Shown one piece after another: positions 7,771-61,865 of a stretch of DNA of 64,000 nucleotides (positions are counted from its first letter, which is position 1; the number at the start of each line of letters is the position of its first letter). The DNA comes from Candidatus Paceibacter sp. (lineage in GTDB: Bacteria > Patescibacteriota > Minisyncoccia > UBA6257 > 02-FULL-45-10c), in assembly GCA_020724845.1 (NCBI GenBank), contig DYGE01000005.1, positions 6,116 through 70,115 on the forward strand, given 5' to 3'. The notes beneath the pieces were generated by a model. The model saw only the letters and a program-made list of their open reading frames with translations. It ran no database searches and had not been told where the DNA came from. The translations under genes were made by a program, and so were the position numbers.

Positions 7771-7772
7771 AT

Positions 7773-9242: not shown

Positions 9243-9253
9243 TCAGATAACCA

Positions 9254-9282
9254 AACCGCCAAGCGCAACTAGGCGGTTTTTT
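9254..9282 (+). terminator. Intrinsic terminator
   Basis: aaaCCGCCaagcgcaactaGGCGGtttttt. Confidence 0.6.
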
Positions 9283-9351
9283 ATTTGAAAATACCATCTT
9301 ATCCCCAGAAATTATTGCAACCTCGGAACTCAAAAGATAAAATTACTACAT

Positions 9352-20866: not shown

Positions 20867-22843
<1,977 letters not shown>

Positions 22844-22914: not shown

Positions 22915-22934
22915 GCCGCCTATTTAGGGGCGGC
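22915..22934 (-). terminator. Terminator hairpin overlapping the coaD-HD stop codon; a second hairpin follows at 22851-22869
   Basis: gccgcctatttaggggcggc followed by a T-run on the minus strand; further downstream aaaaaaGCCGGGGCttttt. Confidence 0.5.
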
Positions 22935-24050: not shown

Positions 24051-24130
24051 TCCTTTCTGTCTTAGTTCAATTTTCAACGATAGCCATATTCTAGTATAAA
24101 TCCTGTATAAAGTCAAAATTAACCGCCATA

Positions 24131-24163
24131 AGAAAAAACCCCGCAATGCGGGGTTATTTTTTT
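24131..24163. terminator. Intrinsic terminator with core CCCCGCAATGCGGGG (shared with 25948-25980)
   Basis: aaaaaaCCCCGCAATGCGGGGttattttttt overlapping the methyltransferase stop codon. Confidence 0.6.
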
Positions 24164-29164: not shown

Positions 29165-31018
29165 TTATTGCCGATTTCTAAATAACGTTTTCGCAAAATC
29201 CCAGAACTCTTCTCGTCCTTGCAGTTTTTCCCAATACCACCACTCTACGCCCCACAAGTAGGCCTCGCGAAATCCTACTTCCCGCGCGTACTCAATATTT
29301 TCCTGAAATTGCTCAAAACTCAAAGACTTGTCTCGCTCTTCAGCTGACATATGCGAAGTCGGCGCCGGCCCCCAGGGCTCGGCCTGAAGTTCTACTACGA
29401 CTATATCTTCAGTATCCGCAAAATATTTAATCAGGTTCGCCTTCCAATGGAAAAAACTCGGCGGAAGGGGGTAGCGCCAGTAGCCATCCCCGGGAATCAT
29501 ATCGCTCCAGATAACTCGATACATGGTAGTCCCGAAAACATCAGCTCGCCTGGCCGCTTGAATCCACAAGCTCAACTCCCCACTGTCGGTTACAATCACC
29601 GGGCGAGCATCCAACGATCGAACTAATTCCAGCTCTTCATCCAAAAAACCCTTATCAAACTCCGGACAAATCCCAAAACCAATCAAGAATGGCTCGTTTT
29701 CCACCTGCCAATATTTGATGCTCGGGTTGTCCTTATATCTGTTAACTGTTTCGGATATCAACTCCAAAAGATTATCTTCCCGCTCCTCCTTCTCAAATTG
29801 CATAGCCCAATCGGGTATGTGGCACTCCGGCCACCTTGGAACCCTTTGCCCAACAGCCAAAATAATTTCCGCGCCTCGCGCCCCGGCTTCACTTACCTGC
29901 CAGTCCAGATTGGAAAAATCCAACTCGCCCTCTTTTTGTTCGATGTCAGTCCAATAAGCAGAAATCCTGACCTTTCTTACCCTCAACTCATCTAGCATCG
30001 CGGCGTAGGCTGCTTGCCAATCTAAGCCAAGCTCTTCGGCCCGGAACTGGCTGAAAGTCACGCCAAAATCCTTCAAACCAGGCGCCAGATCTTCCGGCCT
30101 CTCGCGAAAAGCGAGAATTGCTAGCCCCAAGAAAATGAGCAAAATCGCGATAATCTTAGTGATAATAATTTTTCTGGAAGTTATTTCTTTGAAGAGAGCC
30201 GGGTAATACCTGGAAACCCCGGCCGCCAAGATCAGCACAAAAACATATTGCACTCCGGACAACGCCTGCACCAAGGCCACGCTACCAAGAAAAATCGCGT
30301 AATTCTGCAGTAAAAAGAAAACCCCAGCCAAAGATTTATTCAAAACAAACAGGCCGGCAGCTTTCCCGGAAATTCCCCTTAAATAATCTTTTAAAGTTTG
30401 ATGGCCGCCTATCCGCGATAAATATAAAAATGCTAATCCGGCAATAAGTTCCCCCATCCTGCCAACGACAAAACCATTTACAAAACTGGTTTCCGTATAG
30501 ACATGCTTTATCAAGACAAGCGAAACGGCGAGGAGTAAAGAGCTGGCTAATACAAATACCACTGATTCTAATGTGTGGAGCAAAACATCGGATATTTTAG
30601 TAGAGATCACGATGCCACCCGCTAACAAGACTAAAAACGCAAGAAGCTGGACACTATCCAGCTTCTCAACCAGAAACCAGCTACCGACCGCCAATGTAAA
30701 AATGGCGGTTAACGAGCCGGAGAGCGGAGTCACGCGGGAGATATCGCTTATCTGGATCGCCGAATAAAGAAAAAACAGCCCAATAACATAAATCGCTCCA
30801 CTGGCAAGAGCTAGCCAAACTAGACTCGGATTCTGTACCAGCGGTCCAAGCTCAAACCCGAAAGGGACCAAAATCAGTCCGTATATTCCAAAAACCCCAA
30901 CCCAGGCGGCATAAGTGATCGGCCGCGGAATGGCGGCTTTCAAAATAACCTTATCTAAAATCGCCACCAACGCGGCGACGAAGTAAGCAAGTATCGCGAA
31001 AAATAGCCAAGAAGACAT
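29165..31018 (-). CDS. Polytopic membrane protein (~10 TM) fused to a C-terminal clan GH-A (GH5-like TIM-barrel) glycoside hydrolase domain
   Basis: N-terminal 330 aa hydrophobic; the C-terminal domain has the YWQVENEPF (NEP acid/base) motif. Confidence 0.6.
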   Translation of the reverse strand: MSSWLFFAILAYFVAALVAILDKVILKAAIPRPITYAAWVGVFGIYGLILVPFGFELGPLVQNPSLVWLALASGAIYVIGLFFLYSAIQISDISRVTPLSGSLTAIFTLAVGSWFLVEKLDSVQLLAFLVLLAGGIVISTKISDVLLHTLESVVFVLASSLLLAVSLVLIKHVYTETSFVNGFVVGRMGELIAGLAFLYLSRIGGHQTLKDYLRGISGKAAGLFVLNKSLAGVFFLLQNYAIFLGSVALVQALSGVQYVFVLILAAGVSRYYPALFKEITSRKIIITKIIAILLIFLGLAILAFRERPEDLAPGLKDFGVTFSQFRAEELGLDWQAAYAAMLDELRVRKVRISAYWTDIEQKEGELDFSNLDWQVSEAGARGAEIILAVGQRVPRWPECHIPDWAMQFEKEEREDNLLELISETVNRYKDNPSIKYWQVENEPFLIGFGICPEFDKGFLDEELELVRSLDARPVIVTDSGELSLWIQAARRADVFGTTMYRVIWSDMIPGDGYWRYPLPPSFFHWKANLIKYFADTEDIVVVELQAEPWGPAPTSHMSAEERDKSLSFEQFQENIEYAREVGFREAYLWGVEWWYWEKLQGREEFWDFAKTLFRNRQ

Positions 31019-31024
31019 AAAATT

Positions 31025-32182
31025 CTAATTTCTGATTCCTGATTCAATAATATCACGATAAACCACAACACTCCGCCTAACTTTTCTTTCCATTGTTTTG
31101 TAATCCACCTCAATTAGGCCAAACCTTGGCCCGAAGCCCTTGTCCCACTCAAAGTTATCTATCAGCGACCAATGGAGGTATCCCCGCACGTCCACGCCTT
31201 CATCTTTTGCCTTTTTCATCCATGCAACATGTTCCTTTATGAATTGGGCGCGTTTTTCATCTTTGGCGTCGGCAAGGCCGTTTTCGGTGATGTAAATCGG
31301 CTTGTTGTATTTTCTTAGGTCTTTTAGAACGCGGCATAACCCCTCCGGATAAATCTCCCAGCCGAGGTCAGAAACATTCCGGTTTTCATTTTGGTTAAAC
31401 TTGAATCCCTTGATTCGATTATGAAAATAGTAATTAAAGCCGACAAAATCTTGATAATTCCGTATCTTGTTCAAAAACCTCTTATTCCACCACCAGTCGG
31501 CGCCCCATTTCAACAAAAAATTCCACGGATTATAGCCGGCCGCTTCAAAGTAAGTGTTATTTTTCGCGACTCCGACTTGCGCGGAAGAGATATTGCTATG
31601 GATTATTTTGTAAGCCAGCTTATGAGCTTTGGCCAAATTGCGGATGGCTCCTAAATAGCCCAAAAAAGATCTTTTCTGCGGGGGCCACAAACCTCTCAAA
31701 TAGGCGTTCATCGCATAAATCATAGGCTCATTTATAGTCACCCAGTATTTTATTTCGGGAAAGCTTCTGGAAAGGACTTCTGAATATCTCTCAAAGTATT
31801 TTAAATTTTCTTTATTCTCAAAACCGCCAAGTTTGGAGAACCAGATCGGATTAGTAAAGTGCCAAAGAGTTACAAACGGCTCTAAGCCGTTTTCCCGAAG
31901 GGAAGCAAAGACTTTTTTATAATGCTCGATTTCCTTTATATCAAACTTCCCCTCCTCCGGCTCTACCCGCGCCCACTCAATGGAAAGGCGATGCGCATTA
32001 TGGCCAAGTTTTTTTGCTAAATCAAAATCTTCTTTGAACCGATTATGATGATCAGAAGCTTCGCCGGCGTCAAAGCCCGCGGCGGACCAATCATTTTTAA
32101 TTCCACCCTCAACTTGATAGGCGGAAGTGGCCGCGCCCCAAAAGAAATTATTATCGTTCTTCATCCAGATTTTTTCTTTCAT
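31025..32182 (-). CDS. GH1 beta-glucosidase
   Basis: FFWGAATSAYQVEGG (GH1 N-terminal signature), TINEP, IYITENG (nucleophile motif). Start trimmed to MKEKIW/MKNDNN to limit overlap with the upstream gene. Confidence 0.85.
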   Translation of the reverse strand: MKEKIWMKNDNNFFWGAATSAYQVEGGIKNDWSAAGFDAGEASDHHNRFKEDFDLAKKLGHNAHRLSIEWARVEPEEGKFDIKEIEHYKKVFASLRENGLEPFVTLWHFTNPIWFSKLGGFENKENLKYFERYSEVLSRSFPEIKYWVTINEPMIYAMNAYLRGLWPPQKRSFLGYLGAIRNLAKAHKLAYKIIHSNISSAQVGVAKNNTYFEAAGYNPWNFLLKWGADWWWNKRFLNKIRNYQDFVGFNYYFHNRIKGFKFNQNENRNVSDLGWEIYPEGLCRVLKDLRKYNKPIYITENGLADAKDEKRAQFIKEHVAWMKKAKDEGVDVRGYLHWSLIDNFEWDKGFGPRFGLIEVDYKTMERKVRRSVVVYRDIIESGIRN

Positions 32183-32603
32183 CAACCTCCGCCGCCACAG
32201 AATCCAAAAAAGCGCCAACTTTAGCCCTGTCCATTCCTGATAAAATTCCTTTCATCTTATTAATCTGGCCTTCTATCTCCCCAATCTGTTTCTTATATGC
32301 CAAGGCTCTGTTCGGATCCGAATCTTTAATCTTCTCCAAGATGGCTGCTTTACTATCTCTCATTGCCAAAGCATGTTCAAGCAACCCCCTAAGGCGCGTT
32401 TCAAATTCTGCTTCCGGCAGATACGCCATGCCTTTATCTCGCGCTTTTTCGGCCGAGGGGTAAACTTCTTCTGGTGAAAGCTTGCCTTCCTTGGCGAGCT
32501 TTCTGCGCATAGCCAAAGCGGCAGCCATCTTTTCTTCCATATCCTTAAGCTCGCCCGAGGAAAGATTGTTCTCCTTATTCGGTTTCTCTTTTCCGAAAGC
32601 CAT
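32151..32603 (-). CDS. Hypothetical coiled-coil protein
   Basis: 150-aa ORF with charged, helical character, tightly packed after pheT. Confidence 0.5.
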   Translation of the reverse strand: MAFGKEKPNKENNLSSGELKDMEEKMAAALAMRRKLAKEGKLSPEEVYPSAEKARDKGMAYLPEAEFETRLRGLLEHALAMRDSKAAILEKIKDSDPNRALAYKKQIGEIEGQINKMKGILSGMDRAKVGAFLDSVAAEVDERKNLDEER

Positions 32604-46694: not shown

Positions 46695-48758
<2,064 letters not shown>

Positions 48759-48808: not shown

Positions 48809-49180
48809 CTAATCTAGGGTGATTTCAAACGCTCTCGCGTTTTGCAGAGATTGTCCGGTTGATTTGATTACGACGCGCGAAGCCCCGCCTCCCAAATCTT
48901 CAAGCGTGCAGGTAGTTTGAAATGAAGAATTATTCTGCATAGAAGGCTCGGGGCAAGCAACACCGTCAGGGCAATCATTGCATATCTGGTCATCACTATA
49001 AAATTTATAAAGCCGCCACTCCAATCCGGAATCAGCCGCATAAATTGCCTTGGTGGAATTTACGATATCGGTTGACTGCCTGATTTGGTAAAGCATCAAA
49101 AGCCCGGCGATGGTTGTTGCGCCAAGTATAGTCCCTGACAAAGCTAAAACTGTTATAAGCATTACTTGCCCACTTCTCAT
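48809..49180 (-). CDS. PilX/ComGG-like minor pilus protein (hydrophobic N-terminal helix, no canonical prepilin cleavage motif)
   Basis: MRSGQVMLITVLALSGTILGATTIAGLLMLYQIRQSTD ... Confidence 0.4.
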   Translation of the reverse strand: MRSGQVMLITVLALSGTILGATTIAGLLMLYQIRQSTDIVNSTKAIYAADSGLEWRLYKFYSDDQICNDCPDGVACPEPSMQNNSSFQTTCTLEDLGGGASRVVIKSTGQSLQNARAFEITLD

Positions 49181-49205
49181 ATATATAAATGATAGCAAAA
49201 AACGC

Positions 49206-50471
49206 TTACGGCCTCACTTCTTCAATTCCTCCGGGAGTGGTAGTTGCCTGGAAATTCTTTTTATTGAAAGTAGCTGTGGCTGTTTTCGGAGCATCCATAT
49301 TCAGGATACATTGGCTGGTTCCCGCGCAAGATCCAGTCCATCCGGCGAATTCTGAATCTCCGCTTGGGCTGGCAGTTAAAGTCACGATTGTCCCGGTTGA
49401 ATAATCTTCTGTACAATCCGATCCGCAATTAATGCCTGTGGGATTGGATGTTACCGTGCCGGTGCCATCTCCAGTTTTCGTAACCTGCAAAGCCGCTGTT
49501 TCCGGATCAAATACTGCCGTGACAGATTTAGGAGAGCTCATATCCAAATCGCAAGATGGATTAGTCCCATAGCCGCTGCAATCCCCGAGCCAACCGCCAA
49601 AAACCGACCCGCTAAATGACGAGGCGGTTAAGGTAATAGTTCCCGTCAATTCCGACTCAAAACAATCAAGTCCGCAATTAATGCCGGGACCGGTTACTAC
49701 ACCATCTCCGATTCCGGTGCGCGCAACATTAAGGGTTACCGGATCAAAATGCGCTTCAACCGATTTAGATTCGTCCATGGTCAGCGTACATGGTTCGGTT
49801 CCCGTGCATGCGCCCGACCAACTATTGCCAAACCAGGATCCCGGAGCCGGGTTGGCAAATAAAGTATAAGTATCGCCGGTAACATAATTTGTTGTAGCGG
49901 ATGGACAAGTTAAACCGCAGTTAATTCCAGTACCGGTTACGGTTCCATTACCGTTTCCGGTTTTAGCTATATTAATTGATGGACCGTTACCAACTAAAGA
50001 TTGAGTAGAATATATTACTCCACCATAACCAACATCGCTACTCACCGGATATTTATTTCCATCTTTAATATTGTTCAAGTAATAAGATACGGACTTTACC
50101 CAATAACCATTATATATGTAACCATTGTTAACTACATATGCACACTTAGATTCTTCTAATGGATTGCCGTTACCCATGACCCTCGTTCGTTTCCCTAATT
50201 GACCAGTTCTTGATAACCATTCATTACAGGATTCTCCAAAATTACCTTCCCCAGCAGTATCAGTCCAAGTTCCTGAAAGATGCGGCGGCACAACACCAAC
50301 CTCTTCACTAAAAGCGCTATCTCCCGCAGAATTTTCTGCCACTATCTTAAAATTCCAAGTTCCTGGGGGATTTAATTGATCGCTATAAAAATACTGATTG
50401 TATGAAAACACAATCCCATGATTTCCAGCCCATTCTCCATTGCGATAAAGCTTATAGTTCGTAATCGCCAA
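49206..50471 (-). CDS. Secreted protein: C-terminal part of an FN3 plus three divergent InlB-B-repeat-like (GINCG...C) modules, ending in EVRP. In frame with 50511..52466 across a single TAG.
   Basis: Three repeats of the form GINCG(L/S)DC...TLTASP..GS.F.GW.G.C.GT..C.L.MD..K(S/T)..A.F. The codons after the upstream TAG, ITVTWEAPADNGGLAITNYKLYR, are a canonical FN3 start. The ORF-track start is TTG. Confidence 0.6.
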   Translation of the reverse strand: MAITNYKLYRNGEWAGNHGIVFSYNQYFYSDQLNPPGTWNFKIVAENSAGDSAFSEEVGVVPPHLSGTWTDTAGEGNFGESCNEWLSRTGQLGKRTRVMGNGNPLEESKCAYVVNNGYIYNGYWVKSVSYYLNNIKDGNKYPVSSDVGYGGVIYSTQSLVGNGPSINIAKTGNGNGTVTGTGINCGLTCPSATTNYVTGDTYTLFANPAPGSWFGNSWSGACTGTEPCTLTMDESKSVEAHFDPVTLNVARTGIGDGVVTGPGINCGLDCFESELTGTITLTASSFSGSVFGGWLGDCSGYGTNPSCDLDMSSPKSVTAVFDPETAALQVTKTGDGTGTVTSNPTGINCGSDCTEDYSTGTIVTLTASPSGDSEFAGWTGSCAGTSQCILNMDAPKTATATFNKKNFQATTTPGGIEEVRP

Positions 50472-50510
50472 TCCGCCATTATCCGCCGGCGCTTCCCAGG
50501 TTACCGTAAT

Positions 50511-52466
50511 CTAGCCCTGATTTGGTCCCGGCACCGCGCTTACATTTCTCGGAACATCTGGCACTGTATTCGGCATCGCGCTCGCTTCATTACTCAAAGG
50601 ACTTTCCCCGCTTGCGGTTACTGCGGAAATTTTATAGTAAAAATTTTTCCTATTGGAATAAGCGGATCCGATATTATCCGCATAGGACGTAGTATTTCCT
50701 ACAGTTGTTAATAATGTTTCCTGCCCCGAAACTTCGCTCCTGTAAATTTTATAGTTCGTAACTTCAGATCCTACGGAGTTCCAATTCAAAATCACTTGAC
50801 CATTTCCAGGAGAAGCGCTAAGTGTCGGGGCAGATGGAATAGCAACTTTTACCTCATTACTAAAACCGCTTTCCTCATCGGGATTAGAACCTCTTACTTT
50901 ATAATAGTATGTGTTCCCGCTTGCTATCGTGCTATCGCTATAACTATACGTACTGCCGCTGATAGTCTCTAAAAGAGTTTCGCCGCTAGTAATAGTATCC
51001 CTATATATTTTATAATCGGCCACGGGCGCGCCTGAGGGCTGCCAATTTAACACCACGACTCCATCCACGAACGAAGAAGAAAGGTTTTTAGGAGAATCTA
51101 ATCCTATCTCTACACAATAAAGCCGATTTGAGTTATCACAACCATTAGAGTCTGAATAATGCGACCACCTACTGTCTTGGAAATTAATACCTCCTTTAAT
51201 GGGCTTATAGCTGAGCCATCCATGATAATAAAATGAATTAGAGGTCCAATTTGAACAATGACCTCGAGAATTGATAGAGGCAATACTGCCATTTGAGTTT
51301 GTGTTAGTAAAAGCTAATCCACTAGAAATTTCATTTCCAATTTCATCCCTATTAATAGGAGAATTTAACGAACCATCAAGCAAATCATTCCAATTTTCAG
51401 CAACAAGTAAGCCATTTGTTAAATTATAAGATTTTTGAGATTCAGAGTTTGGAATTCTTGAAGCGGCCGAAATCGAACCGTCGCTAAGCCATGCCCTGAA
51501 AAAGCCGTTCATTCCAGCGGAATTGGCTCTTTGTTGACATATCGCGTCAGCGCCATCTAAACCGCCAAGATTGCCATTATGTGAAGTGCTCGTAACAAAT
51601 ACCCTAAAAGAATTAGCAGTGCTTATCGCTGCGACTTCGTTGCTAAGGTCGCTTTCACCAACACTATTTACAGCAGACACTTTGTAATAATAATTTTTAT
51701 TTGGGTCTAAATTGATGTCGGTATAGCTTAAATTATCCCCTACAGTCGTTAATAATGTTTCCTGTTCTGAGACTTCGCTTCTGTAAATTTTGTAATTGGT
51801 AATTTCTAACCCGCCATCAAAATCCGGCATATCCCAGCTTAAAAATAATTGTAAGTCAGTTCTATTAATAGATAAGTTTAATGGTGCGTTTGGTTTAACT
51901 GGGGGCTGTTCGAAGCAATACAATGGCAATGTAGCTCCGCAATAATAATTAGCACCATAACTCCAAGCATTGGGATAAGTAGTATTGAAAAATCCTACAT
52001 TTTCCCTTTCCCACCAGCTATTTGAAGTCCAGTTATTACAGAAGCTGGTTGCAAAAGCATTTTTTTCTCCGTTTGCAAGGGTATTTGTTCTAACTCTAGG
52101 TCCATAAGGTGTACCTGAAATTAGGCTACCAAATTCAGTTATATTAATAGGTGAATTAATTGTTCCATCGGTTAGATCTTGCCAATCATTAGCAATAATA
52201 GTCCCATCCAACAACGTATAAGGAATGCTCTGTTTTATGAATCTTTCACTAACAGAAAAGCTGGAATTACTTAACCACGCCTTCCACGAACCTCCTATTT
52301 CGGCCACATCAGCGCGGGATTGACATTTAGCATCGGCCCCAGACAAATCACCTAAATTACCATCGTAAAATGTACTAGTAATAAAAACTCTATTCGCTTC
52401 CTGCGCATGGGCAGTCCCGAACAAGAGTGTCGCCGCAAAAATAATTAAAATATAAAATTTTTTCAT
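50511..52466 (-). CDS. Secreted giant protein with two DGNLG..ADA.CQ..A.....FKAWLSD modules and at least three FN3 domains. It terminates at an in-frame TAG inside the fourth FN3.
   Basis: Signal peptide MKKFYILIIFAATLLFGTAHA. FN3 hallmarks ITNYKIYRSEVS ... YYYKVSAVNSVGES. The C-terminus PDVPRNVSAVPGPNQG* matches A-strand PSAPTLSASPGNGQVILNW of the preceding FN3 repeat. Confidence 0.65.
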   Translation of the reverse strand: MKKFYILIIFAATLLFGTAHAQEANRVFITSTFYDGNLGDLSGADAKCQSRADVAEIGGSWKAWLSNSSFSVSERFIKQSIPYTLLDGTIIANDWQDLTDGTINSPINITEFGSLISGTPYGPRVRTNTLANGEKNAFATSFCNNWTSNSWWERENVGFFNTTYPNAWSYGANYYCGATLPLYCFEQPPVKPNAPLNLSINRTDLQLFLSWDMPDFDGGLEITNYKIYRSEVSEQETLLTTVGDNLSYTDINLDPNKNYYYKVSAVNSVGESDLSNEVAAISTANSFRVFVTSTSHNGNLGGLDGADAICQQRANSAGMNGFFRAWLSDGSISAASRIPNSESQKSYNLTNGLLVAENWNDLLDGSLNSPINRDEIGNEISSGLAFTNTNSNGSIASINSRGHCSNWTSNSFYYHGWLSYKPIKGGINFQDSRWSHYSDSNGCDNSNRLYCVEIGLDSPKNLSSSFVDGVVVLNWQPSGAPVADYKIYRDTITSGETLLETISGSTYSYSDSTIASGNTYYYKVRGSNPDEESGFSNEVKVAIPSAPTLSASPGNGQVILNWNSVGSEVTNYKIYRSEVSGQETLLTTVGNTTSYADNIGSAYSNRKNFYYKISAVTASGESPLSNEASAMPNTVPDVPRNVSAVPGPNQG

Positions 52467-52467
52467 C

Positions 52468-52746
52468 TTATAAATTACATCTTTCCCTTAATTGCACATA
52501 CTCTTCATCATTTTCCAAATCAATGACCTCGGGGCTATGCAGCAAATTCATCAATCGCGGACTGGCATTAGTATCAAAACATTCTTTCCTTCTTTCTATA
52601 ATTTGATTCATTATTCCACCGATAATTCTTCCGGGCCGAATCCCCTCATCGGATTGCCGAAGATTGATAAACCAATAAAGCCAAGCCGTCAATAAAAAAA
52701 TAGTGATTAGCAAAGTCGCGGATATTAACAAAAGCTTTTTGCTCAT
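52468..52746 (-). CDS. Hypothetical small membrane protein
   Basis: 92 aa with N-terminal TM LLLISATLLITIFLLTAWLYWFI. Confidence 0.4.
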   Translation of the reverse strand: MSKKLLLISATLLITIFLLTAWLYWFINLRQSDEGIRPGRIIGGIMNQIIERRKECFDTNASPRLMNLLHSPEVIDLENDEEYVQLRERCNL

Positions 52747-52790: not shown

Positions 52791-53849
52791 TTACGGCCTT
52801 ACTTCTCTCGGGGTTCCGGTAGCTGTTCCATTTCCCCCGGATCCTCCGCCAGTTCCATTGCCATTAGTTCCATTTACCGGTACCGGCTCCAGTGATTCGC
52901 TGACCATAATCAATGTTTGCGCCTGGGCTGCCGGCTCTTCGCCTCTCTGCAAGATTACTTTGGCGGTATACAAACCGGGATTTTCATAGGTGCAAAGATT
53001 TTGCGCGGTTCTTGTATCTTCGGCAGTGGTAAATTGCGCGTCTATCGGAGTGGTTATATTGGTCCCAGGGTCTTCTCGGTGGCAATAAAAAGTGTAAGTA
53101 AACTGCATAGGCAGGTCAGGATTAGCCGATGCATCAGCAATTAAATTTACCCCGAAAAGAGGCGCTCCGTTTGAAGACGGTTCCGCGCTCAATGAAACTT
53201 GCAACGGCTCATTCAAATTTTCCCACCACAGCTGCAGTCGCGGCTGTTCTCCTGGCCATGGCTTATCCGGATATGTCGGAGTATTGAAATAATGAGCAAC
53301 ATATATTTGCGTATAGCCGCCGGGCAAAGTATAAATATTAGAGCTTGCCAACCTGCCATCGTTAGTACCCACGGTCTTCTTGAAATAAGGCCAAACTTGG
53401 AGCTCAACACTATCATTAGTAAATAGATGGAACCGATACTGCCCCGGTTTAAGATTAACTAATCCCCTGATTTCAGATCTTACATATACCCCGCTGTCAC
53501 ATGTATACAATATACTTCCTTCTATAGCAGACCAGCGGCTGCGAGCGCAACGCTCTCTTCCAAGCACATAACTTGAAGCAAACATTGTTCCTTGCAAATT
53601 AAAAGTGTTTTCAAAATTAACAAAATGAGAACCAACCTGGCCGGATGGCAAAGATAAATTATGCTGTTGAGTCAAATAAGAATCCAAGGATCCTCCACGC
53701 CATCCATTAAATTCTGCCTTCCAATCATAAAAACATAGACGAAATACATCGCTTGGATAATTATGGCATTGCGAGTGAGTAGCGTTTGCAACATACGCCC
53801 CGCCTATTGCAATAAAAAATATAATTAAAATCAAAAACTTATTTTTCAT
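52791..53849 (-). CDS. Secreted protein with PA14-like and PKD-like domains and a Gly/Asn/Thr-rich linker ending in EVRP
   Basis: Signal peptide. GQYRFHLFTNDSVELQVW (PA14-like). FTYTFYCHREDPG...YENPGLYTAKVIL (PKD-like). C-terminal ...NGTATGTPREVRP. Confidence 0.5.
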   Translation of the reverse strand: MKNKFLILIIFFIAIGGAYVANATHSQCHNYPSDVFRLCFYDWKAEFNGWRGGSLDSYLTQQHNLSLPSGQVGSHFVNFENTFNLQGTMFASSYVLGRERCARSRWSAIEGSILYTCDSGVYVRSEIRGLVNLKPGQYRFHLFTNDSVELQVWPYFKKTVGTNDGRLASSNIYTLPGGYTQIYVAHYFNTPTYPDKPWPGEQPRLQLWWENLNEPLQVSLSAEPSSNGAPLFGVNLIADASANPDLPMQFTYTFYCHREDPGTNITTPIDAQFTTAEDTRTAQNLCTYENPGLYTAKVILQRGEEPAAQAQTLIMVSESLEPVPVNGTNGNGTGGGSGGNGTATGTPREVRP

Positions 53850-54042: not shown

Positions 54043-54240
54043 CTATTGAGTTTGCACTAATAAAGAAAGCACCAGGATAGTCCAAAGGAGCGCAAAAACA
54101 GTTATCGCCCAGCCTTCTTTCCTGAATTGGGGTTCAGCAATCAGCGCCAAGCCGTAAACTATCCCCGCAGGGCCGCTTAAAATTGAGATAACAATGCCGA
54201 CCCAAAACCACTTTTGCCAAAATTTAAATTTATTTTCCAT
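54043..54240 (-). CDS. Small two-TM membrane protein
   Basis: MENKFKFWQKWFWVGIVISILSGPAGIVYGLALIAEPQ... The 5' end and promoter region are duplicated at 54405-54580. Confidence 0.4.
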   Translation of the reverse strand: MENKFKFWQKWFWVGIVISILSGPAGIVYGLALIAEPQFRKEGWAITVFALLWTILVLSLLVQTQ

Positions 54241-54286
54241 ATTTATATTATAACAAATTATCCATCTTATACTATAATTAGTATAG

Positions 54287-54484
54287 ATGAAGACGCGCAA
54301 TCAAAAAGGTTTTTCTTTGGTGGAAATGCTGGTGATAGTAATGACTTTCGGATTGATTTCCGGGATTCTGATTGTTTACAGCCGGACCGCTGATTACGCT
54401 CACAACTACGCCGACCCAAAACCACTTTTTCCAGAATTTAAATTTATCCATAGAGTATTCGCGAATATGGCAAATTTATTTTAA
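54287..54484 (+). pseudogene. Truncated type IV pilin paralog (remnant of a segmental duplication)
   Basis: MKTRNQKG|FSLVEMLVIVMTFGLISGILIVYSRT parallels the downstream pilin MNSKG|FTIVEVLVVISVTALLTGVSIFYNRT for about 36 aa, then diverges and stops. Its 3' part is antisense to a second copy of the MDKFKFWKKWFWVG N-terminus. Confidence 0.5.
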
Positions 54485-54579
54485 TAACGCAAATATTATT
54501 CGCATCATTTTGCTAAATTCGCATTGTTAGCGATTACTCTCATTATAACAAATTAGGCAACTTATACTATAATTAATGT

Positions 54580-55128
54580 ATGAATAGCAAAGGATTTACG
54601 ATTGTGGAAGTGTTAGTAGTCATCAGCGTAACCGCTCTTTTGACCGGAGTATCTATTTTTTACAACCGCACCAGCCAAAAACAGATAACCCTTTTTAAGG
54701 AACAGGCCAAAATAATCAATACCGTCTTGCGCGCTAAATCTTTGGCGCTTACAACCTACACCAAGGAAGGCGCGCCTTGCGCTTACGGTATTCATTTTAA
54801 TAAAGATGCTAGAGAAATGAGAATTTTCCGCGATCTGGACGCTAGCGGAACAACTGACGATTGTGCAACCGCGGATAATCAATATGAAGCAACGCCTCCG
54901 CCAAACGCGGAAGATCTTGATCCTCCTGCCGTTGAGATATTAAGCGGCGAAATCAGCTTTATAGAACCTTTTAACCTGACCGATATCGTTTTCATACCGC
55001 CGCAGCCGGAAGTCGTTATTATCCCAGATCCGTCCCCGGCCACCGACGTTGCCATAGAAATAGGAACCGCTGACGGCGTTTCGAAATTAATAAAAATAAA
55101 CAGTTTCGGCCAAGTGACCGCGCAATAA
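54580..55128 (+). CDS. Type IV pilin / pseudopilin
   Basis: Class III signal MNSKG|FTIVEVLVVISV with Glu+5. Preceded by the promoter-like repeat tataacaaatta..cttatactataatta also found upstream of the truncated copy. Confidence 0.8.
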   Translation: MNSKGFTIVEVLVVISVTALLTGVSIFYNRTSQKQITLFKEQAKIINTVLRAKSLALTTYTKEGAPCAYGIHFNKDAREMRIFRDLDASGTTDDCATADNQYEATPPPNAEDLDPPAVEILSGEISFIEPFNLTDIVFIPPQPEVVIIPDPSPATDVAIEIGTADGVSKLIKINSFGQVTAQ

Positions 55129-55129
55129 T

Positions 55130-55672
55130 ATGGATAACAAAGGGCAAGTCTTAGTTGAAGCAATAGTTGCCATTACCATAGCAACCGTCGGGTTATTGGG
55201 TATTTTCGGTTTAATGAACCGATCCCTAAGCTTAAACCGCCAGACCGGAGACCAGTATGTCGCCGCCAACCTGGCCATGGAAGGAGTGGAAGTGATAAAA
55301 AATATGATTGACAACAATATCATCCAAGGGCTTCCTTGGAATAACGGCATTTCTGACGGGATATATGAAGTTATGTATAATGACGCGGGGCTAAGCAGAA
55401 AAATACTAGGCGCGGATCCGGTTGCGGACTGCAATTCCGCCTTCATATTACAAGATGAAAATACCGACTACCTGGACTTTGACCCAATAACCGGAATCTA
55501 TGGATACGGCTTTTCAGAGCAAACTAGGTATAAGCGGGGTGTCTGCGTAAGAAATCTCCTCGGCGGGAACGAAATACAGGTTAACGCGATAATAGTTTGG
55601 ACCACCAGAGGCCAGGCAGTCTTTGATATCAATCTGGAAGATCATTTCTATAATTGGAGACCGGAACTATAA
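55130..55672 (+). CDS. Minor pilin (PilV/GspH-like)
   Basis: MDNKG|QVLVEAIVAITIATVGLLGIF, a prepilin-type N-terminus with Glu+5. Confidence 0.7.
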   Translation: MDNKGQVLVEAIVAITIATVGLLGIFGLMNRSLSLNRQTGDQYVAANLAMEGVEVIKNMIDNNIIQGLPWNNGISDGIYEVMYNDAGLSRKILGADPVADCNSAFILQDENTDYLDFDPITGIYGYGFSEQTRYKRGVCVRNLLGGNEIQVNAIIVWTTRGQAVFDINLEDHFYNWRPEL

Positions 55673-55703
55673 AACGTCTAGCGTTTAGAATTGAAATAGG
55701 ATT

Positions 55704-56294
55704 ATGAAAAATATTTTTAATATATCAAATTTGCGAAGCGAGCTGAGCGCTGAAAAAGGTTTCACTGTCGTGGAGCTAATCGTCGCCTTTGGGCTATTTG
55801 CCATCGTACTTTCCATAGTCACCGGAACTTTTATAAAATCCCTGCGCACCCAGCAGCAAATCACGGCTTTCATCGCCGCCAACAGCAATGCCAGCCTGAC
55901 CATCGAGCAGATAGCAAGAGAGATAAGAACCGGACAAGATTTCTGCGTAGACCCGAACGCCGTCTGCGAGTTGGATAACGGAGACATATATAATGACATA
56001 GTCTTTACCAATGCCAGAGGACAGCAAGTAAAATACAGTCTTGCCGAACGGACTATCGGCTCCAATGTCATTCAATCTATCATGCGCAGCGTGGATGGCG
56101 GCCAAGCTATTCCGGTAACAGCCGATAACGTCAATATCCAAAGATTGAAATTCTACCTTAGCGGCCAGGAAACCGCGGACGGCCAAAATCCGAAAATAAC
56201 TATCGTGCTTGGCGCCGGATCTCCCAGTATTTCTTTCGCGGACCTGCTGATAAACTTGCAGACTACTATCAGCTCGCGTATATTGCAGACCTAA
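55704..56294 (+). CDS. Minor pilin with a long leader (PilW-like)
   Basis: ...LSAEKG|FTVVELIVAFGLFAIVLSIV. Confidence 0.7.
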   Translation: MKNIFNISNLRSELSAEKGFTVVELIVAFGLFAIVLSIVTGTFIKSLRTQQQITAFIAANSNASLTIEQIAREIRTGQDFCVDPNAVCELDNGDIYNDIVFTNARGQQVKYSLAERTIGSNVIQSIMRSVDGGQAIPVTADNVNIQRLKFYLSGQETADGQNPKITIVLGAGSPSISFADLLINLQTTISSRILQT

Positions 56295-57157
56295 TACAAA
56301 TTGAAGAAGCTAAAATAGGCGCGAAGCAGATTTTCACCGAAGAAAAAGAGCGTTAGCGTCCCAGCTATTAGAAATGGCCCGAACGGCACTTGGCTCTTCA
56401 TATTCTTTTTTTGGAAGAGAATCAGCGCCAAACTCACAATCGCGCCTATAAAAGTTCCAAATATGAAAAGGAATAAGGTATCCGGCCAGCCGAATAAAAC
56501 CCCAAGCGCCGCCATTAATTTCAAGTCACCCATGCCCATTCCCCTTCCTTTAGTAATAAGAATTATCAAACCGACGATCGACGCGCCGATTAAGGCGCCG
56601 AATAGATGATTCAGAATCACGCTTTCGCGCAAACCAAACAGTGCCGCGTAACTTCCTATGAAAGATCCTTGGAATTCCCCGAATTGCGCGTAAAAAGTGG
56701 TTGACGCAATCCTAAAAAAACCAAGAAGGGCCAAGCTAATATTCAATTCGTCCGGGATCAGGTACAAGCGATAATCAATCGTCCCGATTAGAATAAAGGT
56801 CAAAAAAACGGCAATCCAGACGGCACTTTCTATAAGGGTCTGGGGTAGAGGGTAGAGGGTATAGTTAGAAAAATATAATGGGAGTAAAAATACAAAACCG
56901 CTCGCCAGCTCCACCAACGGATACTGCCAGGAAATTTTCTTACCGCAGGTCATGCATTTTCCGCGCTGAATCAAAAAACTCAAAACCGGCACCAACTCAA
57001 ACCAGCTTAAAGTGGCGCCGCAAGACGGGCAATGCGATCTGCCGAGCAAATTTCTAAAATCAAAAACGTTCTTTTCTGGGTCATAGCGAAGGGAAACAAC
57101 ATTGAGGAAACTCCCAACTATAAGACCGAAAAGAAAAAGAAAAAAGTAGGTCATAGC
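56291..57157 (-). CDS. pilD: Prepilin peptidase (A24 family)
   Basis: Zinc-binding CPSCG...CMTCG, multiple TM segments, catalytic Asp region DYRLYLIPDEL. Confidence 0.85.
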   Translation of the reverse strand, partial: AMTYFFLFLFGLIVGSFLNVVSLRYDPEKNVFDFRNLLGRSHCPSCGATLSWFELVPVLSFLIQRGKCMTCGKKISWQYPLVELASGFVFLLPLYFSNYTLYPLPQTLIESAVWIAVFLTFILIGTIDYRLYLIPDELNISLALLGFFRIASTTFYAQFGEFQGSFIGSYAALFGLRESVILNHLFGALIGASIVGLIILITKGRGMGMGDLKLMAALGVLFGWPDTLFLFIFGTFIGAIVSLALILFQKKNMKSQVPFGPFLIAGTLTLFFFGENLLRAYFSFFNLY

Positions 57158-57243
57158 CAATACCACTATAATATCAATTATAAAACGCAAACGCCACGAA
57201 AGTTCGCGGCGTTTGTACTTCTATAAGAAGCGCTGCTGACGGC

Positions 57244-57720
57244 TTAGAATTGTACGCAATAAACCGGATTCGGGGTATCACTGCAATCAATACCGAATAC
57301 AGTACCATCCACGTCATCATCTAGAGAACGGTCGCCTACGTTTTCCAAGACGGCGCCGATAATATAGCTCTGGCCATCACCAGACACTCCGTAGCGATAA
57401 TCATTGGTTCCCAATGGATCAGTTGGAACCTTGGTAATTCCCAATCCGCTAGTGCCGGTAAGCGCAGTTGATAGCGCTGACCAAGTCTTTGCTCCGGCAG
57501 TGCCGGCATCGCAGTCCGCGGCACCCGGGTATCGTCCGCAACGTGTATAATAAATCTCCACGCCCTGCTGAACACTCTTGATGTCAGCCAACCTTCGCGC
57601 GTCCCTGCCTCGGGAGCGAAAACCAGCCAAACCAACCAAGAAGACAGAGGACAGTAAGCCGACGATGGAAATAACCACCAAAATTTCAATCAAAGTAAAG
57701 CCCTTTTTAGATGCTGTCAT
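57244..57720 (-). CDS. pilA: Major type IV pilin
   Basis: MTASKKG|FTLIEILVVISIVGLLSSV. Upstream is the tandem palindromic AT element TGATTAATTAAT x2. Confidence 0.85.
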   Translation of the reverse strand: MTASKKGFTLIEILVVISIVGLLSSVFLVGLAGFRSRGRDARRLADIKSVQQGVEIYYTRCGRYPGAADCDAGTAGAKTWSALSTALTGTSGLGITKVPTDPLGTNDYRYGVSGDGQSYIIGAVLENVGDRSLDDDVDGTVFGIDCSDTPNPVYCVQF

Positions 57721-57789: not shown

Positions 57790-58998
57790 TTAGAATGCCC
57801 GGGTCAAGTTGAATATCGGCAGCAAAATGGCAACGAAAAGAACTCCAACTGCTATACCGATGAATACCATTAAGGCGGGCTGGATCAGCTCAACTAGCCG
57901 TCCGATTAAATCATCAACTTCTCTGGAGTAAAACGAAGAGACTCTGGACAGGAGAGCTTCCAGCTTGCCGGTAGATTCTCCTACCGACACCATTTGGCTC
58001 ACCAACGGAGGGAAAAACTCATCGTGCTCCTGAAGCGCTTGAGACATTAATTCGCCGCCCCTTACCGATTCGGCAATCTTATGCAGAATATCGCTGTAAA
58101 TAGGACTCCCAATAGTGCGTCCGGAAATTTCTATAGCTTGCGCCACCGGCAAACCGCCCCGAATCAGCACGGCCACAGATTCCGCGAAGCGCGCTACATA
58201 CAATTTTTTGTAAAGATTCCCAAGAATAGGCACTCGCAGCCGCACTTCATCCAGTATGATTTTCCCCTCTTCCGTTCTCAAATAATCGTAGATGACAAAT
58301 ACGATCACTCCCAAGGTTATCGCTATTGCCAGCCACCAGTTAGTAAGAAAATCCCCGCTTCCAAGCAAAATTCTGGTTATCAAAGGAAGCTCCACTCCGG
58401 ATTCCTGAAAAACCGGAGCCAGCTGCGGGAAAACAAAGCCAATTAACACTCCGCCAACCACGCCAAAAAGAATGATGACAATTATCGGATAGATTAAGGC
58501 ATTCCTTATACGCGACACTAAACCCGCCTCCTTTTCCAAATATTCAGCTAAAAAGCCGATAACTTCTTCCAAACGCCCGGTTATCTCCGCGGAGCTAACC
58601 ATGCTCACATAAAATTCAGAGAAGGCTCCCGGATGTTTTTTCAACGCTTGAGAAAGCGACAGGCCGGCGTCTATATCCGAAGAAACTTCCGAAATAATTT
58701 CCTTCAGAATCGGATTTTTAGTTTGCTTGTAAAGATTGCGCAGGGCATCGCCTAAAGAAATTTTGGCTTCCAAAAAAGTGGCGAATTGCCTAGTGAACAC
58801 CATCACGTCCGCCGACTTCACTCGCTCAAAGATATTAACCAACCGCTTATACCAAGGGAGAGCTTCGGCGGAAACTAGGCTGAGCAGAACCAGATCGTGG
58901 CCGGTTAAAACATTAATGGCCGCTTCTCGGTTAGCCGCCTCCACAAAACCAGTCTGAAGCTCCCCTTGTTTAGTTCTGGCATTATAACGAAATTTCAT
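57790..58998 (-). CDS. pilC: Type IV pilus assembly platform protein (GspF family)
   Basis: Two T2SSF repeats, 3 TM, 402 aa. Confidence 0.85.
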   Translation of the reverse strand: MKFRYNARTKQGELQTGFVEAANREAAINVLTGHDLVLLSLVSAEALPWYKRLVNIFERVKSADVMVFTRQFATFLEAKISLGDALRNLYKQTKNPILKEIISEVSSDIDAGLSLSQALKKHPGAFSEFYVSMVSSAEITGRLEEVIGFLAEYLEKEAGLVSRIRNALIYPIIVIILFGVVGGVLIGFVFPQLAPVFQESGVELPLITRILLGSGDFLTNWWLAIAITLGVIVFVIYDYLRTEEGKIILDEVRLRVPILGNLYKKLYVARFAESVAVLIRGGLPVAQAIEISGRTIGSPIYSDILHKIAESVRGGELMSQALQEHDEFFPPLVSQMVSVGESTGKLEALLSRVSSFYSREVDDLIGRLVELIQPALMVFIGIAVGVLFVAILLPIFNLTRAF

Positions 58999-59006: not shown

Positions 59007-60098
59007 TTATTTAATCTGCCCGCTTTCCAGCAGAACCCGCAATTCCGCCGGGTTCAAAGAATAAAGCTCGGCGCTTTCCAAAGAAATTTCCCTGTTGAGA
59101 ACCAGTTTAGCCAGCGAGCGATTAAGAGAAATCATCCCGTCTTTAACGCTGGTTTCAATGACTAAGTCTATTTGATGAGTTTTCCTCTCGCGAATCAGGT
59201 TTCTGATGGCCGGATTCACAAGCATAACCTCTACCGCCGGGATGCGGCCGCCGTCGATTCTCGGAACCAGCCGCTCTGAAATTATCCCGACCAAAGTGGA
59301 AGAAAGCTGGGTAATAATTTGGGACTGCTGTTCTGGCGGAAAGCTGTCTATTATTCTATCAATAGTTTGCGCGGCGGAATTGGTGTGGAGAGTGGAAAAA
59401 ACCAAGTGCCCGGTTTCAGCGGCAGTCATAGCGGTGGAAATTGAACCTTGATCGCGCATTTCTCCGATCATGACCACGTCCGGATCCTGCCTAAGCAGAG
59501 TGCGCAGGCCGTCATGAAAACTCAAAGCATCTGCCCCAACCTCTCTTTGAGATACTATGCAGCGATCTTGTGTGAATAGATATTCAATCGGATCCTCAAT
59601 GGTAATAATGTGATCAGTTCGCTGATGATTAATTTGATCTAGAATAGCCGCCACCGTTGTTGATTTTCCATGGCCGGCAGGACCCACCACCAAAACAAAA
59701 CCTTGAGAGAGACGGGAAAAATTTTGAATAATCGGCGGCAAACCCAACTCTTCAAGAGACTGCACTTTGCCTGGGATGAGGCGAAGAGCGGCTGCCATAT
59801 CTCCACGCTGAAAAAATACGTTGACTCGGAACCTTGCCTTATCTTCATAGGAGTACGCAAGGTCAATCTGCTTTTCCTGCAATAATTTTTCTTTTTGTTC
59901 AGGAGTCAGCAAGGCGCTCACTAATCCTTCCGCTGATTCGGAAGTTAAAACTTCCTCCTGCTGTAGCGGCGCCAAAACCCCATCTAATCTTAGAGTGGGC
60001 TTTCGGCCAACCGATAAATGGAGATCAGAAGCGTTTTGCTTTACCGCCGTTGATAAATACGATTCCAGTAATTGTTTGTATTTGTTATTAGTAGGCAT
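59007..60098 (-). CDS. pilT: Twitching motility ATPase PilT
   Basis: Walker A VLVVGPAGHGKSTT, Asp box, His box; 363 aa. Confidence 0.9.
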   Translation of the reverse strand: MPTNNKYKQLLESYLSTAVKQNASDLHLSVGRKPTLRLDGVLAPLQQEEVLTSESAEGLVSALLTPEQKEKLLQEKQIDLAYSYEDKARFRVNVFFQRGDMAAALRLIPGKVQSLEELGLPPIIQNFSRLSQGFVLVVGPAGHGKSTTVAAILDQINHQRTDHIITIEDPIEYLFTQDRCIVSQREVGADALSFHDGLRTLLRQDPDVVMIGEMRDQGSISTAMTAAETGHLVFSTLHTNSAAQTIDRIIDSFPPEQQSQIITQLSSTLVGIISERLVPRIDGGRIPAVEVMLVNPAIRNLIRERKTHQIDLVIETSVKDGMISLNRSLAKLVLNREISLESAELYSLNPAELRVLLESGQIK

Positions 60099-60134: not shown

Positions 60135-61865
60135 TTATAGCTCCTCCGTTTCTCTTAAAACCTCTTCCAGGCTCACCAAGCCATCCAAGGCCTTCAGAAT
60201 GCCATCTTGCCGCATTGCTATCATACCCTGCCTTCGCGCCTCTTCCAAAAGCTTAGCTTCGCTGAATCCGGAATTTATTACCTCCTGCAATTGAGGGGTC
60301 ATGATTAAGGCCTCAAAAATCGCAACCCTGCCGACAGTGCCTTTCTCATTGCATTCTTTGCAGCCGGCCGCTCTGTAAATTTTGACATCTTTTATTTTTT
60401 TTCTGGTTTCCGCCGGCATCTTTTCCAATTCCCTGTTAAGAATTTCCCCCAACTTTCCGGACGGGACTTCGGCTTTCTTGCAATTCTGGCAAAGCCGGCC
60501 CAACAACCGCTGAGCCATCATCAAATTTAAAGAAGACGGGAGCAGAAAGCTGTCAACTTGCATATCAATCAAGCGAGGGATGACTCCAAGCGCGTTATTA
60601 GTGTGGAGAGTAGAAAGCACAATATGCCCGGTAAGGGCGGCATTAATGGTAAGTTGGGCGGTTTCTTTATCCCGCACCTCTCCCACCATAATAACATCCG
60701 GGTCTTGCCTCAAAATCTGCCTCAATCCGGAAGCAAAAGTATAGCCGATCTCCGGCTTCACTTGCGATTGGTTGACGCCTTCAAGGTAATATTCAACCGG
60801 ATCCTCCAAGCTGACTATATTCACATCCGGAGTATTTAAAATCTGGAAAATAGCGTAAAGCGTGGTGCTCTTTCCGGAACCGGTCGGACCAGTAACTAGA
60901 ATTAAGCCGTACGGCTTATCAATCGCCTCTCTGACTATTTCCGCGTTCCTGCCAATCAGCCCCAGCCCCTCTAAATCCTTCAGGCCGACAGTCGGGTCAA
61001 GAATTCGGAGAGCCACCTTTTCCCCATTGGGCGTCGGGAAGGTCGCAACACGAAAATCAATATCTCTTCCGAAAATAATGGAGCGAAATCGGCCGTCCTG
61101 CGGCACCCTAGTCTCATCCAATTTCAAGCTGGCCAGAACTTTAATTCTTGAAATAAATGGCTGATGAATTTCCGGCGGCATCTTGCTGACCTCTATAAGA
61201 TCGCCGTTAACTCGGAACCGAACCCGGAAGCTGGAGCGCTGCGGCTCAAGGTGTATGTCTGAAGCTCCCACGTTAATCGCCTCTTTCAAAGTAGAGGCTA
61301 CAAGCTTGATAACCGGAGCCTCCTCGGCTGTCTTTGCTCCTTCTTCTATTCCGACAATCTTCCCGCCGGCCGCGGTAAACTTTGAAGACTTCAGATTCAG
61401 CGACTGCAGAGCCTCCTCCACTTCATCTTTATAGGGAGAATACTTCCGCATCACCAAGTCAAAATCTCCCGGAGTAATAAGATAAACTCCGAGGTTAATC
61501 TTTTGCTGCTTAGCCACGAAACGCAAAGCTTCTTGGGCTTGGGCATTGGTCGGTTCCAGCATCCCGACCACTAGCATATCCTTGGTTTTGGACAGCGGCA
61601 CAACTTTATAAGTTCGGGCGACTTCCTCGCTGATGCTGGAAAGCAATTCCTTAGTTATGGTATCTAAATTAATTTTCCGAAAAGGAATACTTAAAATCTT
61701 GCTTTTTACTTTTGCCACCTCCTCTTCATCTATCAAATTGCGATCATAAATAAGCTGTTCGGCAGTTCTTCCAATAGCCGCAGCTTCTCCCTGTATTTTA
61801 TTAGCCGCGTCCTGCGCCAACAGGCCGGCAGCAACCAAATTTTCTAAAAGTTTTTTATCGTCCAC
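60135..61865 (-). CDS. pilB: Type IV pilus assembly ATPase PilB (GspE family)
   Basis: N-terminal GSPII_E_N domain, Walker A ILVTGPTGSGKSTT, tetracysteine CQNC...CKEC. Confidence 0.9.
   Translation of the reverse strand: MDDKKLLENLVAAGLLAQDAANKIQGEAAAIGRTAEQLIYDRNLIDEEEVAKVKSKILSIPFRKINLDTITKELLSSISEEVARTYKVVPLSKTKDMLVVGMLEPTNAQAQEALRFVAKQQKINLGVYLITPGDFDLVMRKYSPYKDEVEEALQSLNLKSSKFTAAGGKIVGIEEGAKTAEEAPVIKLVASTLKEAINVGASDIHLEPQRSSFRVRFRVNGDLIEVSKMPPEIHQPFISRIKVLASLKLDETRVPQDGRFRSIIFGRDIDFRVATFPTPNGEKVALRILDPTVGLKDLEGLGLIGRNAEIVREAIDKPYGLILVTGPTGSGKSTTLYAIFQILNTPDVNIVSLEDPVEYYLEGVNQSQVKPEIGYTFASGLRQILRQDPDVIMVGEVRDKETAQLTINAALTGHIVLSTLHTNNALGVIPRLIDMQVDSFLLPSSLNLMMAQRLLGRLCQNCKKAEVPSGKLGEILNRELEKMPAETRKKIKDVKIYRAAGCKECNEKGTVGRVAIFEALIMTPQLQEVINSGFSEAKLLEEARRQGMIAMRQDGILKALDGLVSLEEVLRETEEL

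Follow-up and report, generated by a model that had tools for sequence, protein, structure and literature searches.

An in-frame amber codon in a large adhesin-like gene beside the type IV pilus genes of a Candidatus Paceibacter bacterium, probably a recent nonsense mutation

Interruption of an accessory surface-protein gene by a nonsense codon is a well-known and common kind of event. Here, we analysed an in-frame amber codon (TAG) in a giant adhesin-like gene that lies beside type IV pilus genes in a 64,000-nucleotide stretch of contig DYGE01000005.1 from Candidatus Paceibacter sp. (hereafter the window, with all positions counted from its first letter). Internalin A (InlA) of Listeria monocytogenes is held at the cell wall by an LPXTG/sortase signal, and truncated InlA lacks this anchor. 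Premature stop codons that truncate InlA are common in some populations of this species (PMC5131979). By analogy, the inlA stops may be regarded as the nearest known parallel to the gene studied here: in both, a point nonsense codon falls in a modular surface adhesin, and in both an exported N-terminal fragment would be left while the C-terminal part that holds the protein would be removed. However, while the anchor of InlA is a characterised LPXTG/sortase signal, the tail of the window's protein, ...TTTPGGIEEVRP, is uncharacterised and is followed by no transmembrane segment. Moreover, the window comes from an uncultured Parcubacteria-type bacterium.

In the CS3 pilus gene cluster of enterotoxigenic Escherichia coli, the bypass of an amber codon was reportedly described by Jalajakumari et al. 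in 1989 (cited in PMC6681793) as regulatory readthrough. There, as in the window, an in-frame amber codon lies inside a pilus-locus gene whose open frame continues beyond it. By contrast, the window's stop is absent from orthologs, nothing indicates elevated readthrough at it, and the pili concerned are of different kinds, namely chaperone-usher fibrillae in CS3 and type IV pili in the window. Besides CS3, we located no other pilus-related precedent of functional amber bypass. Recoded stops, such as UAG for pyrrolysine and UGA for selenocysteine, are retained across orthologs and depend on specialised tRNAs and factors (PMC1914089). The window's codon resembles these in being an in-frame stop followed by conserved coding sequence, but it differs from them in three respects: the orthologs have Lys or Thr at this position, housekeeping genes are closed by TAG, and the DNA scanned yielded no tRNA with a CUA anticodon (tRNA-CUA).

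At the level of domains, the protein recalls the endostatin-like (Len) proteins of Leptospira and surface proteins with DUF1554, FN3 and InlB-B-repeat domains, in that its own domains match DUF1554/Endostatin, fn3 and Flg_new_2, typical building blocks of extracellular binding proteins. The part translated ahead of the TAG matches the LenA/B endostatin-like family of NCBIfam only weakly, however, with Len scores of 31–35 bits against family cut-offs of 300–400; the similarity is confined to the domain level, and the architecture of the window's protein, together with its C-terminal tail, is specific to its Parcubacteria lineage.

The interrupted gene and its split domain

The gene occupies 49206..52466 on the minus strand. 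Its translation runs from an ATG at 52466 to a TAA at 49208..49206 and spans 1087 codons, 1085 of them sense, in the order of 651 codons, TAG, 434 codons and TAA. The TAG at 50511..50513 (50513..50511 as read on the minus strand; codon 652, context CAG GGC TAG ATT ACG) is the sole internal stop in this frame, and the residues spanning it read GPNQG-X-ITVTWEAPADNGGLAITNYK. If it were read through, the product would be a secreted, modular, adhesin-like protein of 1086 amino acids. Two open reading frames (ORFs) have been called within this gene, one of 651 amino acids (50511..52466) and one of 421 amino acids with a TTG start (49206..50471). They share the frame, and the 13 codons from the TAG to TTG 50471 are open as well, so that the frame is continuous, just as an earlier note made from the letters of the window had described it when it spoke of two same-frame ORFs parted by one in-frame TAG.

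Searching the joined giant protein against 5.8 billion clustered proteins, we recovered four full-length homologs (P0002, P0004, P0005 and P0006) of 1143–1394 amino acids, with 42–44% BLAST identity and 98–100% query coverage, all of which keep the domain set and the C-terminus of the giant protein, with an extra repeat unit in P0002. The same search returned no full-length near-identical allele, only the 651- and 421-amino-acid pieces of the window's own protein. Two of the homologs are positional orthologs, encoded in the related Parcubacteria-type contigs L004 (1143 amino acids) and L006 (1145 amino acids) as single uninterrupted ORFs; P0002 and P0004 are intact too. The order of genes in L004 is pilB, pilT, pilC, pilin, pilD, three minor pilins on the opposite strand, variable secreted proteins, the giant gene, a 117-amino-acid gene, ligA, gatC and gatA, and L006 has the same order up to the giant gene, where its contig ends. 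Housekeeping proteins of the window are 70% (LigA), 77% (GatA), 77–79% (PilT) and 70% (PilC) identical to those of L004/L006. Because homology to the full-length orthologs runs straight across the TAG, chance pairing of the two ORFs can be dismissed, and by this homology the giant gene is shown to be one unit.

The alignment crosses the TAG with invariant residues on either side. The residue aligned to the TAG is K in three of the four orthologs and T in the remaining one, and the codon is AAA (Lys) in both L004 and L006. Because the orthologs carry a sense residue at this site, the TAG is specific to the lineage of the window. Contig scans with the junction region and with a five-sequence alignment found no relatives in species-representative genomes, and L003, the only match in the single metagenome-contig scan, was set aside as an unrelated giant FN3-repeat protein rather than an ortholog.

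The translated part (50514..52466, minus strand) consists of a signal-peptide-like N-terminus followed by DUF1554/endostatin-like, FN3, DUF1554, FN3 and FN3 domains and by strand A of a fourth FN3 domain; its Pfam matches are fn3 (1.6e-17), DUF1554 (6e-11) and Endostatin (5.2e-10). Judging from its residues, the N-terminus is a putative signal peptide, MKKFYILIIFAATLLFGTAHA/QE. The remainder past the TAG (49206..50510, minus strand), that is, 434 sense codons and the TAA, completes the fourth FN3 domain and goes on with a middle region that contains Cys residues, three InlB-B-repeat (Flg_new_2) modules and the tail at the C-terminus; Pfam Flg_new_2 (divergent InlB B-repeat) matches in three stretches at 6.7e-21.

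The fourth FN3 domain (residues ~638–723; 50298..50555, minus strand) is split by the TAG at approximately profile position 15. When K or Q is placed at the stop, the joined sequence matches the fn3 profile (Pfam PF00041) at positions 2–81 of 84 with 30.2–30.3 bits, above the curated cut-off of 25 bits, so that the two sides of the TAG together give a near-full match; the post-stop part alone matches positions 16–81 with 23.6 bits, below that cut-off. In an AlphaFold model of the third and fourth FN3 domains (mean predicted local distance difference test score, pLDDT, of 82.3, with blocks 101–140 at 82–92), strands are predicted at segment residues 102–107 and 116–120, on either side of the stop at segment residue 114, and this model places the TAG in the A–B turn of a single FN3 domain. 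The profile match and the modelled strands agree with the earlier proposal that the amber codon splits one FN3 domain.

The same TAG occurs in three assemblies, namely those of NCBI, JGI (L001, sample 3300029893) and Logan (L002, SRR5011275). Two samples are on record for the Logan contig, which passes through the TAG unbroken, and both the JGI and the Logan contigs are identical to the window across the whole giant gene. An assembler artefact is unlikely.

Origin of the stop codon

Considering these data, we favour, with a probability of about 0.74, a real and evolutionarily recent nonsense mutation that breaks up a single gene, normally free of interruption, encoding a large, secreted, adhesin-like protein. 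The earlier note had listed such a mutation as one of four possible readings, and it is singled out by the intact syntenic orthologs with AAA and by the undecayed state of the downstream half. Before the mutation, the site probably held AAG, CAG or some other sense codon that a single step separates from TAG. The giant gene lies between the minor-pilin genes of the type IV pilus and ligA, and this slot is variable between relatives, while the giant protein itself diverges fast; therefore, the loss of one accessory protein is plausible and unremarkable. If the mutation is what it seems, ribosomes would terminate at codon 652 and the 651-amino-acid precursor would be exported through Sec. In the released fragment, two endostatin-like and three FN3 domains would be followed at the end by the unpaired A-strand of the fourth FN3 domain, while the rest of that domain, the Cys-containing middle region, the three InlB-B-repeat modules and the conserved tail would be missing. 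Any surface or pilus association of the full protein, and its normal localisation, would probably be lost with the tail, and the full-length form would arise only in traces, via background near-cognate readthrough. The downstream 434 codons would then be silent, their intactness reflecting how little time there has been for more damage to build up.

Past the TAG, neither relaxed constraint nor further lesions were found, and this does not contradict a recent event. The 434 codons contain no further stop and no frameshift, their identity to the orthologs is 50–52% (compared to 43–49% for the 651 codons before the TAG), and the three B-repeat modules retain their full set of 12 cysteines. Columns that are invariant among the four orthologs are retained in the window at 62% downstream and 73% upstream of the TAG, a gap that is due in part to a deletion in the middle region and that we do not read as decay. 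Approximately 4.66% of the possible single substitutions past the TAG would create a stop, and because the downstream part is still undamaged, neutral change since the TAG arose can be limited to fewer than ~63 substitutions, or less than 4.8% per site (95% level, indels ignored). Either the mutation is recent or the downstream part is still under selection.

Several points weigh against a recent nonsense mutation. Among the ortholog codons, the nearest, AAA, lies two steps away from TAG and does not fix the codon of the immediate ancestor. The three assemblies represent one sampled population rather than independent lineages, so that an allele short of fixation or a systematic library artefact may still lie behind them. 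The scan for a suppressor tRNA covered only ~78 kb of the genome. Finally, the intact run of 434 codons fits continued use by readthrough equally well as a very recent mutation, and there is no close relative with which to measure selection on these codons.

It is conceivable, but unlikely, that the site is polymorphic, with nonsense and sense alleles circulating, for example under phage or host pressure, and the assemblies reporting the commoner of the two; we regard this as a sub-case of a recent nonsense mutation rather than a true alternative to it. Surface proteins of the slot do turn over quickly. In addition, the JGI contigs differ from the window by a few mismatches near contig ends, with five of them in L001 at 56615..56785. 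The JGI assembly breaks at ~56813 and 62055, flanking pilD-pilin-pilC-pilT-pilB, and the five mismatches fall in the last 200 bases before the 56813 break. These breaks and mismatches hint at strain-level variation inside the pilus locus and so speak for polymorphism. However, none of the assemblies breaks at the TAG, and the records contain neither an alternative allele nor a full-length protein. Nor does the DNA offer a repeat or invertible segment for reversible switching. In the 24 kb examined, no inverted repeat, invertible segment or template copy of the type used by diversity-generating retroelements was found at the TAG, and the surroundings of CAGGGCTAGATTACG are free of homopolymers and short repeats. 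The sole repeat that touches the FN3-repeat half of the giant gene in these 24 kb is an internal FN3 duplication (50693-50765 / 51734-51806); a weak 34-nucleotide repeat pair lies further downstream, in the B-repeat modules. With no template, inverted or short repeat, phase variation and a diversity-generating retroelement were both rejected, and the phase-variable site considered in the earlier note is left without a mechanism.

A consensus, sequencing or assembly error, in which case the real genome would have a sense codon and an intact gene, is decidedly improbable. A difference of one base would suffice for it, and the independence of the assemblies is incomplete, as all of them sample one population and probably go back to the same libraries or sister ones. 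Against this, the identical TAG came out of three assemblies made by different pipelines, the two-sample Logan contig is unbroken at the site, and the local sequence is free of error-prone homopolymers and repeats. Furthermore, substitution errors seldom survive the consensus at the coverage needed for contigs of 60–90 kb. Sequencing error, which had also been among the four initial readings, is thus made less likely by the agreement of NCBI, JGI and Logan, and retains some weight through their common population.

Programmed amber readthrough or suppression would yield two isoforms, a short secreted one and a longer one that includes the C-terminal modules and the tail. We consider it very unlikely, even though several features are in line with it: the downstream frame is intact and conserved as much as the upstream part; in the structural model, the TAG falls in a loop that resembles a domain boundary; the C-terminal tail looks functionally important, so the isoforms would differ in localisation; and a pilus operon, that of CS3 in enterotoxigenic E. 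coli, provides a precedent. In genome screens, an in-frame stop conserved among orthologs is the working criterion for recoding (PMC1914089), whereas at the TAG of the giant gene the orthologs have K, K, K and T, that is, a sense residue in all four and AAA in both syntenic ones. No stimulatory RNA structure was detected in the 124 nucleotides from the TAG on, which fold at -25.2 kcal/mol compared to a mean of -26.6 kcal/mol for shuffles (z = +0.46), no better than the latter. Three ordinary terminators in the window also stand in a TAG-A context, and no tRNA-CUA is encoded in the 64-kb window or in ~14 kb of flanks from the same population. The earlier note had named a TAG conserved in relatives as the mark of programmed readthrough; this check, run on relatives, disfavours the idea, given that the stop is not conserved, no structure accompanies it and no suppressor tRNA was found in the DNA scanned.

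TAG is an ordinary terminator in this genome. It ends 18 of the 63 crude ORFs, with TAA ending 37 and TGA eight. Among the genes closed by it are those of ribosomal protein L11, the M13 peptidase, SMC and gatA, in which the Pfam profiles end at residues 139 of 141, 668 of 672, 719 of 726 and 468 of 479, respectively, as well as pilD and a cytidylyltransferase-like gene at 22920..24146 (coaD-HD in the earlier note), the latter being the example that had been offered beforehand of TAG as a genuine stop elsewhere. A reassignment of TAG in the genetic code was rejected since TAG ends housekeeping genes.

Also very unlikely is the idea that the TAG is a tolerated or selected leaky stop, setting the ratio of the free 651-amino-acid fragment to a rare full-length form, the latter bearing the ...TTTPGGIEEVRP tail and being exposed on the type IV pilus or in its vicinity. 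If true, it would mean translational control of adhesin localisation in a bacterium of the candidate phyla radiation, and a TAG that was either leaky or polymorphic would be relevant to the way in which these bacteria vary their display at the pili. Taken by itself, the TAG is a small example of the ease with which reduced, host-dependent bacteria lose accessory surface proteins.

A functional split, with the 651- and 421-amino-acid products both made and working together, is close to refuted: although gene callers annotate both ORFs, the cut falls inside a single FN3 domain, the relatives L004 and L006 lack the split, and the downstream ORF has no signal peptide, a poor TTG start and no promoter-like site 5′ of that start. 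The TTG called as the start of the 421-amino-acid ORF (50469..50471, minus strand) is probably not a real start; as read from the sequence, GGCGGA abuts it, making a poor ribosome-binding site, and the product would be without a signal peptide. No promoter-like site was found 5′ of it in 50472..50620, and none of promoter-like or terminator-like character at the TAG junction. An exact database look-up of the 421-amino-acid ORF returned no record. In the annotation, the 651- and 421-amino-acid ORFs are best joined and marked as a single disrupted gene.

A variable slot and a shared C-terminal tail

The tail and the cassette-like slot that holds the giant gene are more interesting leads than the stop itself. 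In the closest relative found, L011 (LigA 82% identical), there is no ortholog of the giant FN3 protein, and a different protein of 640 amino acids occupies the slot. The L011 slot (1..3220) is similar to the window's giant gene only in the last B-repeat module and the tail (49% over 97 residues). Another, more distant relative, L013 (LigA 72%; GCA_030646915.1, JAUSKT010000019.1), carries two other proteins there. The slot appears to swap its head domains and to retain the C-terminal module.

In the giant gene, the tail TTTPGGIEEVRP is encoded at 49209..49244 (minus strand), at the extreme end of the protein, and is removed from the product by the TAG; the lost end reads ...FQATTTPGGIEEVRP. 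Its pattern Q-A-T-T-T-P-G-G-x-x-E-x-R-P is invariant in all four orthologs. The tail recurs in the window at the end of an unrelated secreted protein of 352 amino acids (52791..53849; tail at 52794..52829, minus strand), which terminates in ...GTATGTPREVRP. Kelch-repeat proteins adjoin the giant genes of L004 and L006 and end in ...TTTPGGIREIRP and ...TTTPGGIRETRP, respectively, and the 640-amino-acid slot protein of L011 (881..2803) likewise ends in the tail, as ...ATPTQIKEVRPE. The endings ...GTPREVRP and ...TPTQIKEVRPE are among those seen on the tail-bearing proteins of these loci. In these relatives, the tail-bearing genes lie at 7911..9404 and 10001..13432 of L004, at 7706..9235 and 10001..13438 of L006 and at 881..2803 of L011. 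The two secreted slot proteins of L013 (2287..3828 and 4287..5732) have different but parallel tails, ...SLFLKKFKELLPF and ...SLFLKKLRELLPF (...FLKKFKELLPF and ...FLKKLRELLPF). Across lineages, the core of the tail is roughly [KRE]-E-[VIL]-[RL]-P with an optional last residue.

The heads that bear this tail are of different kinds, including FN3/DUF1554 domains, a Kelch propeller, Cys-rich CGN repeats and the 352-amino-acid protein of unknown type, whereas the tail itself lies at the very C-terminus, and no transmembrane segment follows it. It appears to be the constant element of the slot. No sorting domain was recognised in the tail region by Pfam or NCBIfam, and NCBIfam gave no match at all to the C-terminal half of the giant protein or to the 352-amino-acid tail-bearing protein. 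When a profile of the last 48 residues was run against 1.84 billion representatives, multi-copy InlB-B-repeat proteins swamped the search; end-to-end matches were confined to P0005 and the fragment from the window itself, and the tail closes none of the 148 remaining matches. Judging from its position and recurrence, the tail may be an undescribed C-terminal sorting or pilus-docking signal; we know of no such sorting or pilus-attachment signal described for this bacterial group.

In most cases examined, a small gene (92–228 amino acids) lies immediately ahead of the tail-bearing gene. These small genes lie at 52468..52746 (minus strand) in the window, 9424..9996 in L004, 9309..9995 in L006, 554..871 in L011, and 1878..2300 and 3860..4282 in L013. 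The products of four of the six, those of L004 and L006 being the exceptions, have a single N-terminal hydrophobic segment, and none of the six has a family match. This arrangement suggests a two-gene cassette of a small membrane protein and a tagged secreted protein.

Pilus locus and surrounding genes

Closest among named relatives of the window's GyrB are proteins from metagenome-assembled genomes of Candidatus Harrisonbacteria and other Patescibacteria/Parcubacteria (84–85% identity), which places the window with Parcubacteria-type bacteria of the candidate phyla radiation. The gyrB gene (20867..22822) happens to encode 651 amino acids, a length shared with the upstream ORF of the giant gene by coincidence.

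The pilus genes span 54.5–61.9 kb of the window, at higher coordinates than the giant gene and on its 5′ side with respect to its own strand. They comprise pilB (60135..61865), pilT (59007..60098), pilC (57790..58998), a pilin (57244..57720), the prepilin peptidase gene pilD (56291..57190) and three minor pilins (54580..56294) on the strand opposite to the giant gene, and they bear out the label of a pilus locus given to the region before. On the other side, the downstream neighbour of the giant gene (48809..49198, minus strand) encodes a protein of 129 amino acids with one N-terminal hydrophobic segment, 73% identical to the product of the 117-amino-acid gene of L004. It found no family match above threshold in Pfam or NCBIfam, and from its sequence features it may be read as PilX-like. 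A counterpart of this gene adjoins the adhesin slot in all related loci and is present in L011 and L013 as well. Next, at lower coordinates, comes ligA (46695..48740), with gatC and gatA beyond it at lower coordinates still.

Other same-frame ORF pairs split by TAG, namely GH1 / EamA-type protein and gatA / a 176-amino-acid ORF, were examined and discarded as ordinary adjacent genes with ATG starts of their own and unrelated domains. In the first of these pairs, the GH1 glycosidase ORF (31025..32218, minus strand) is only 397 amino acids long and ends in TAG. Two codons past this TAG, an ORF of 617 amino acids (29165..31018, minus strand) follows in the same frame, with an EamA-type membrane domain first and a weak GH42-like match further on; the two were treated as separate genes.

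At the left end of the window, a very large ORF without family information on record starts at approximately position 2107 and runs off the end (1..2107, minus strand). It continues in L007 (12288..19520), and was called as 2411 amino acids, open at the contig end. In the region of the minor pilins, two pairs of direct repeats were noted, 54167..54233 / 54381..54447 and 54247..54285 / 54542..54580, which are 78% and 87% identical and lie 214 and 295 bp apart, respectively. Situated at 54167..54580, in the divergent region at the starts of the minor-pilin genes, they look like a local duplication of a promoter/5′ region.

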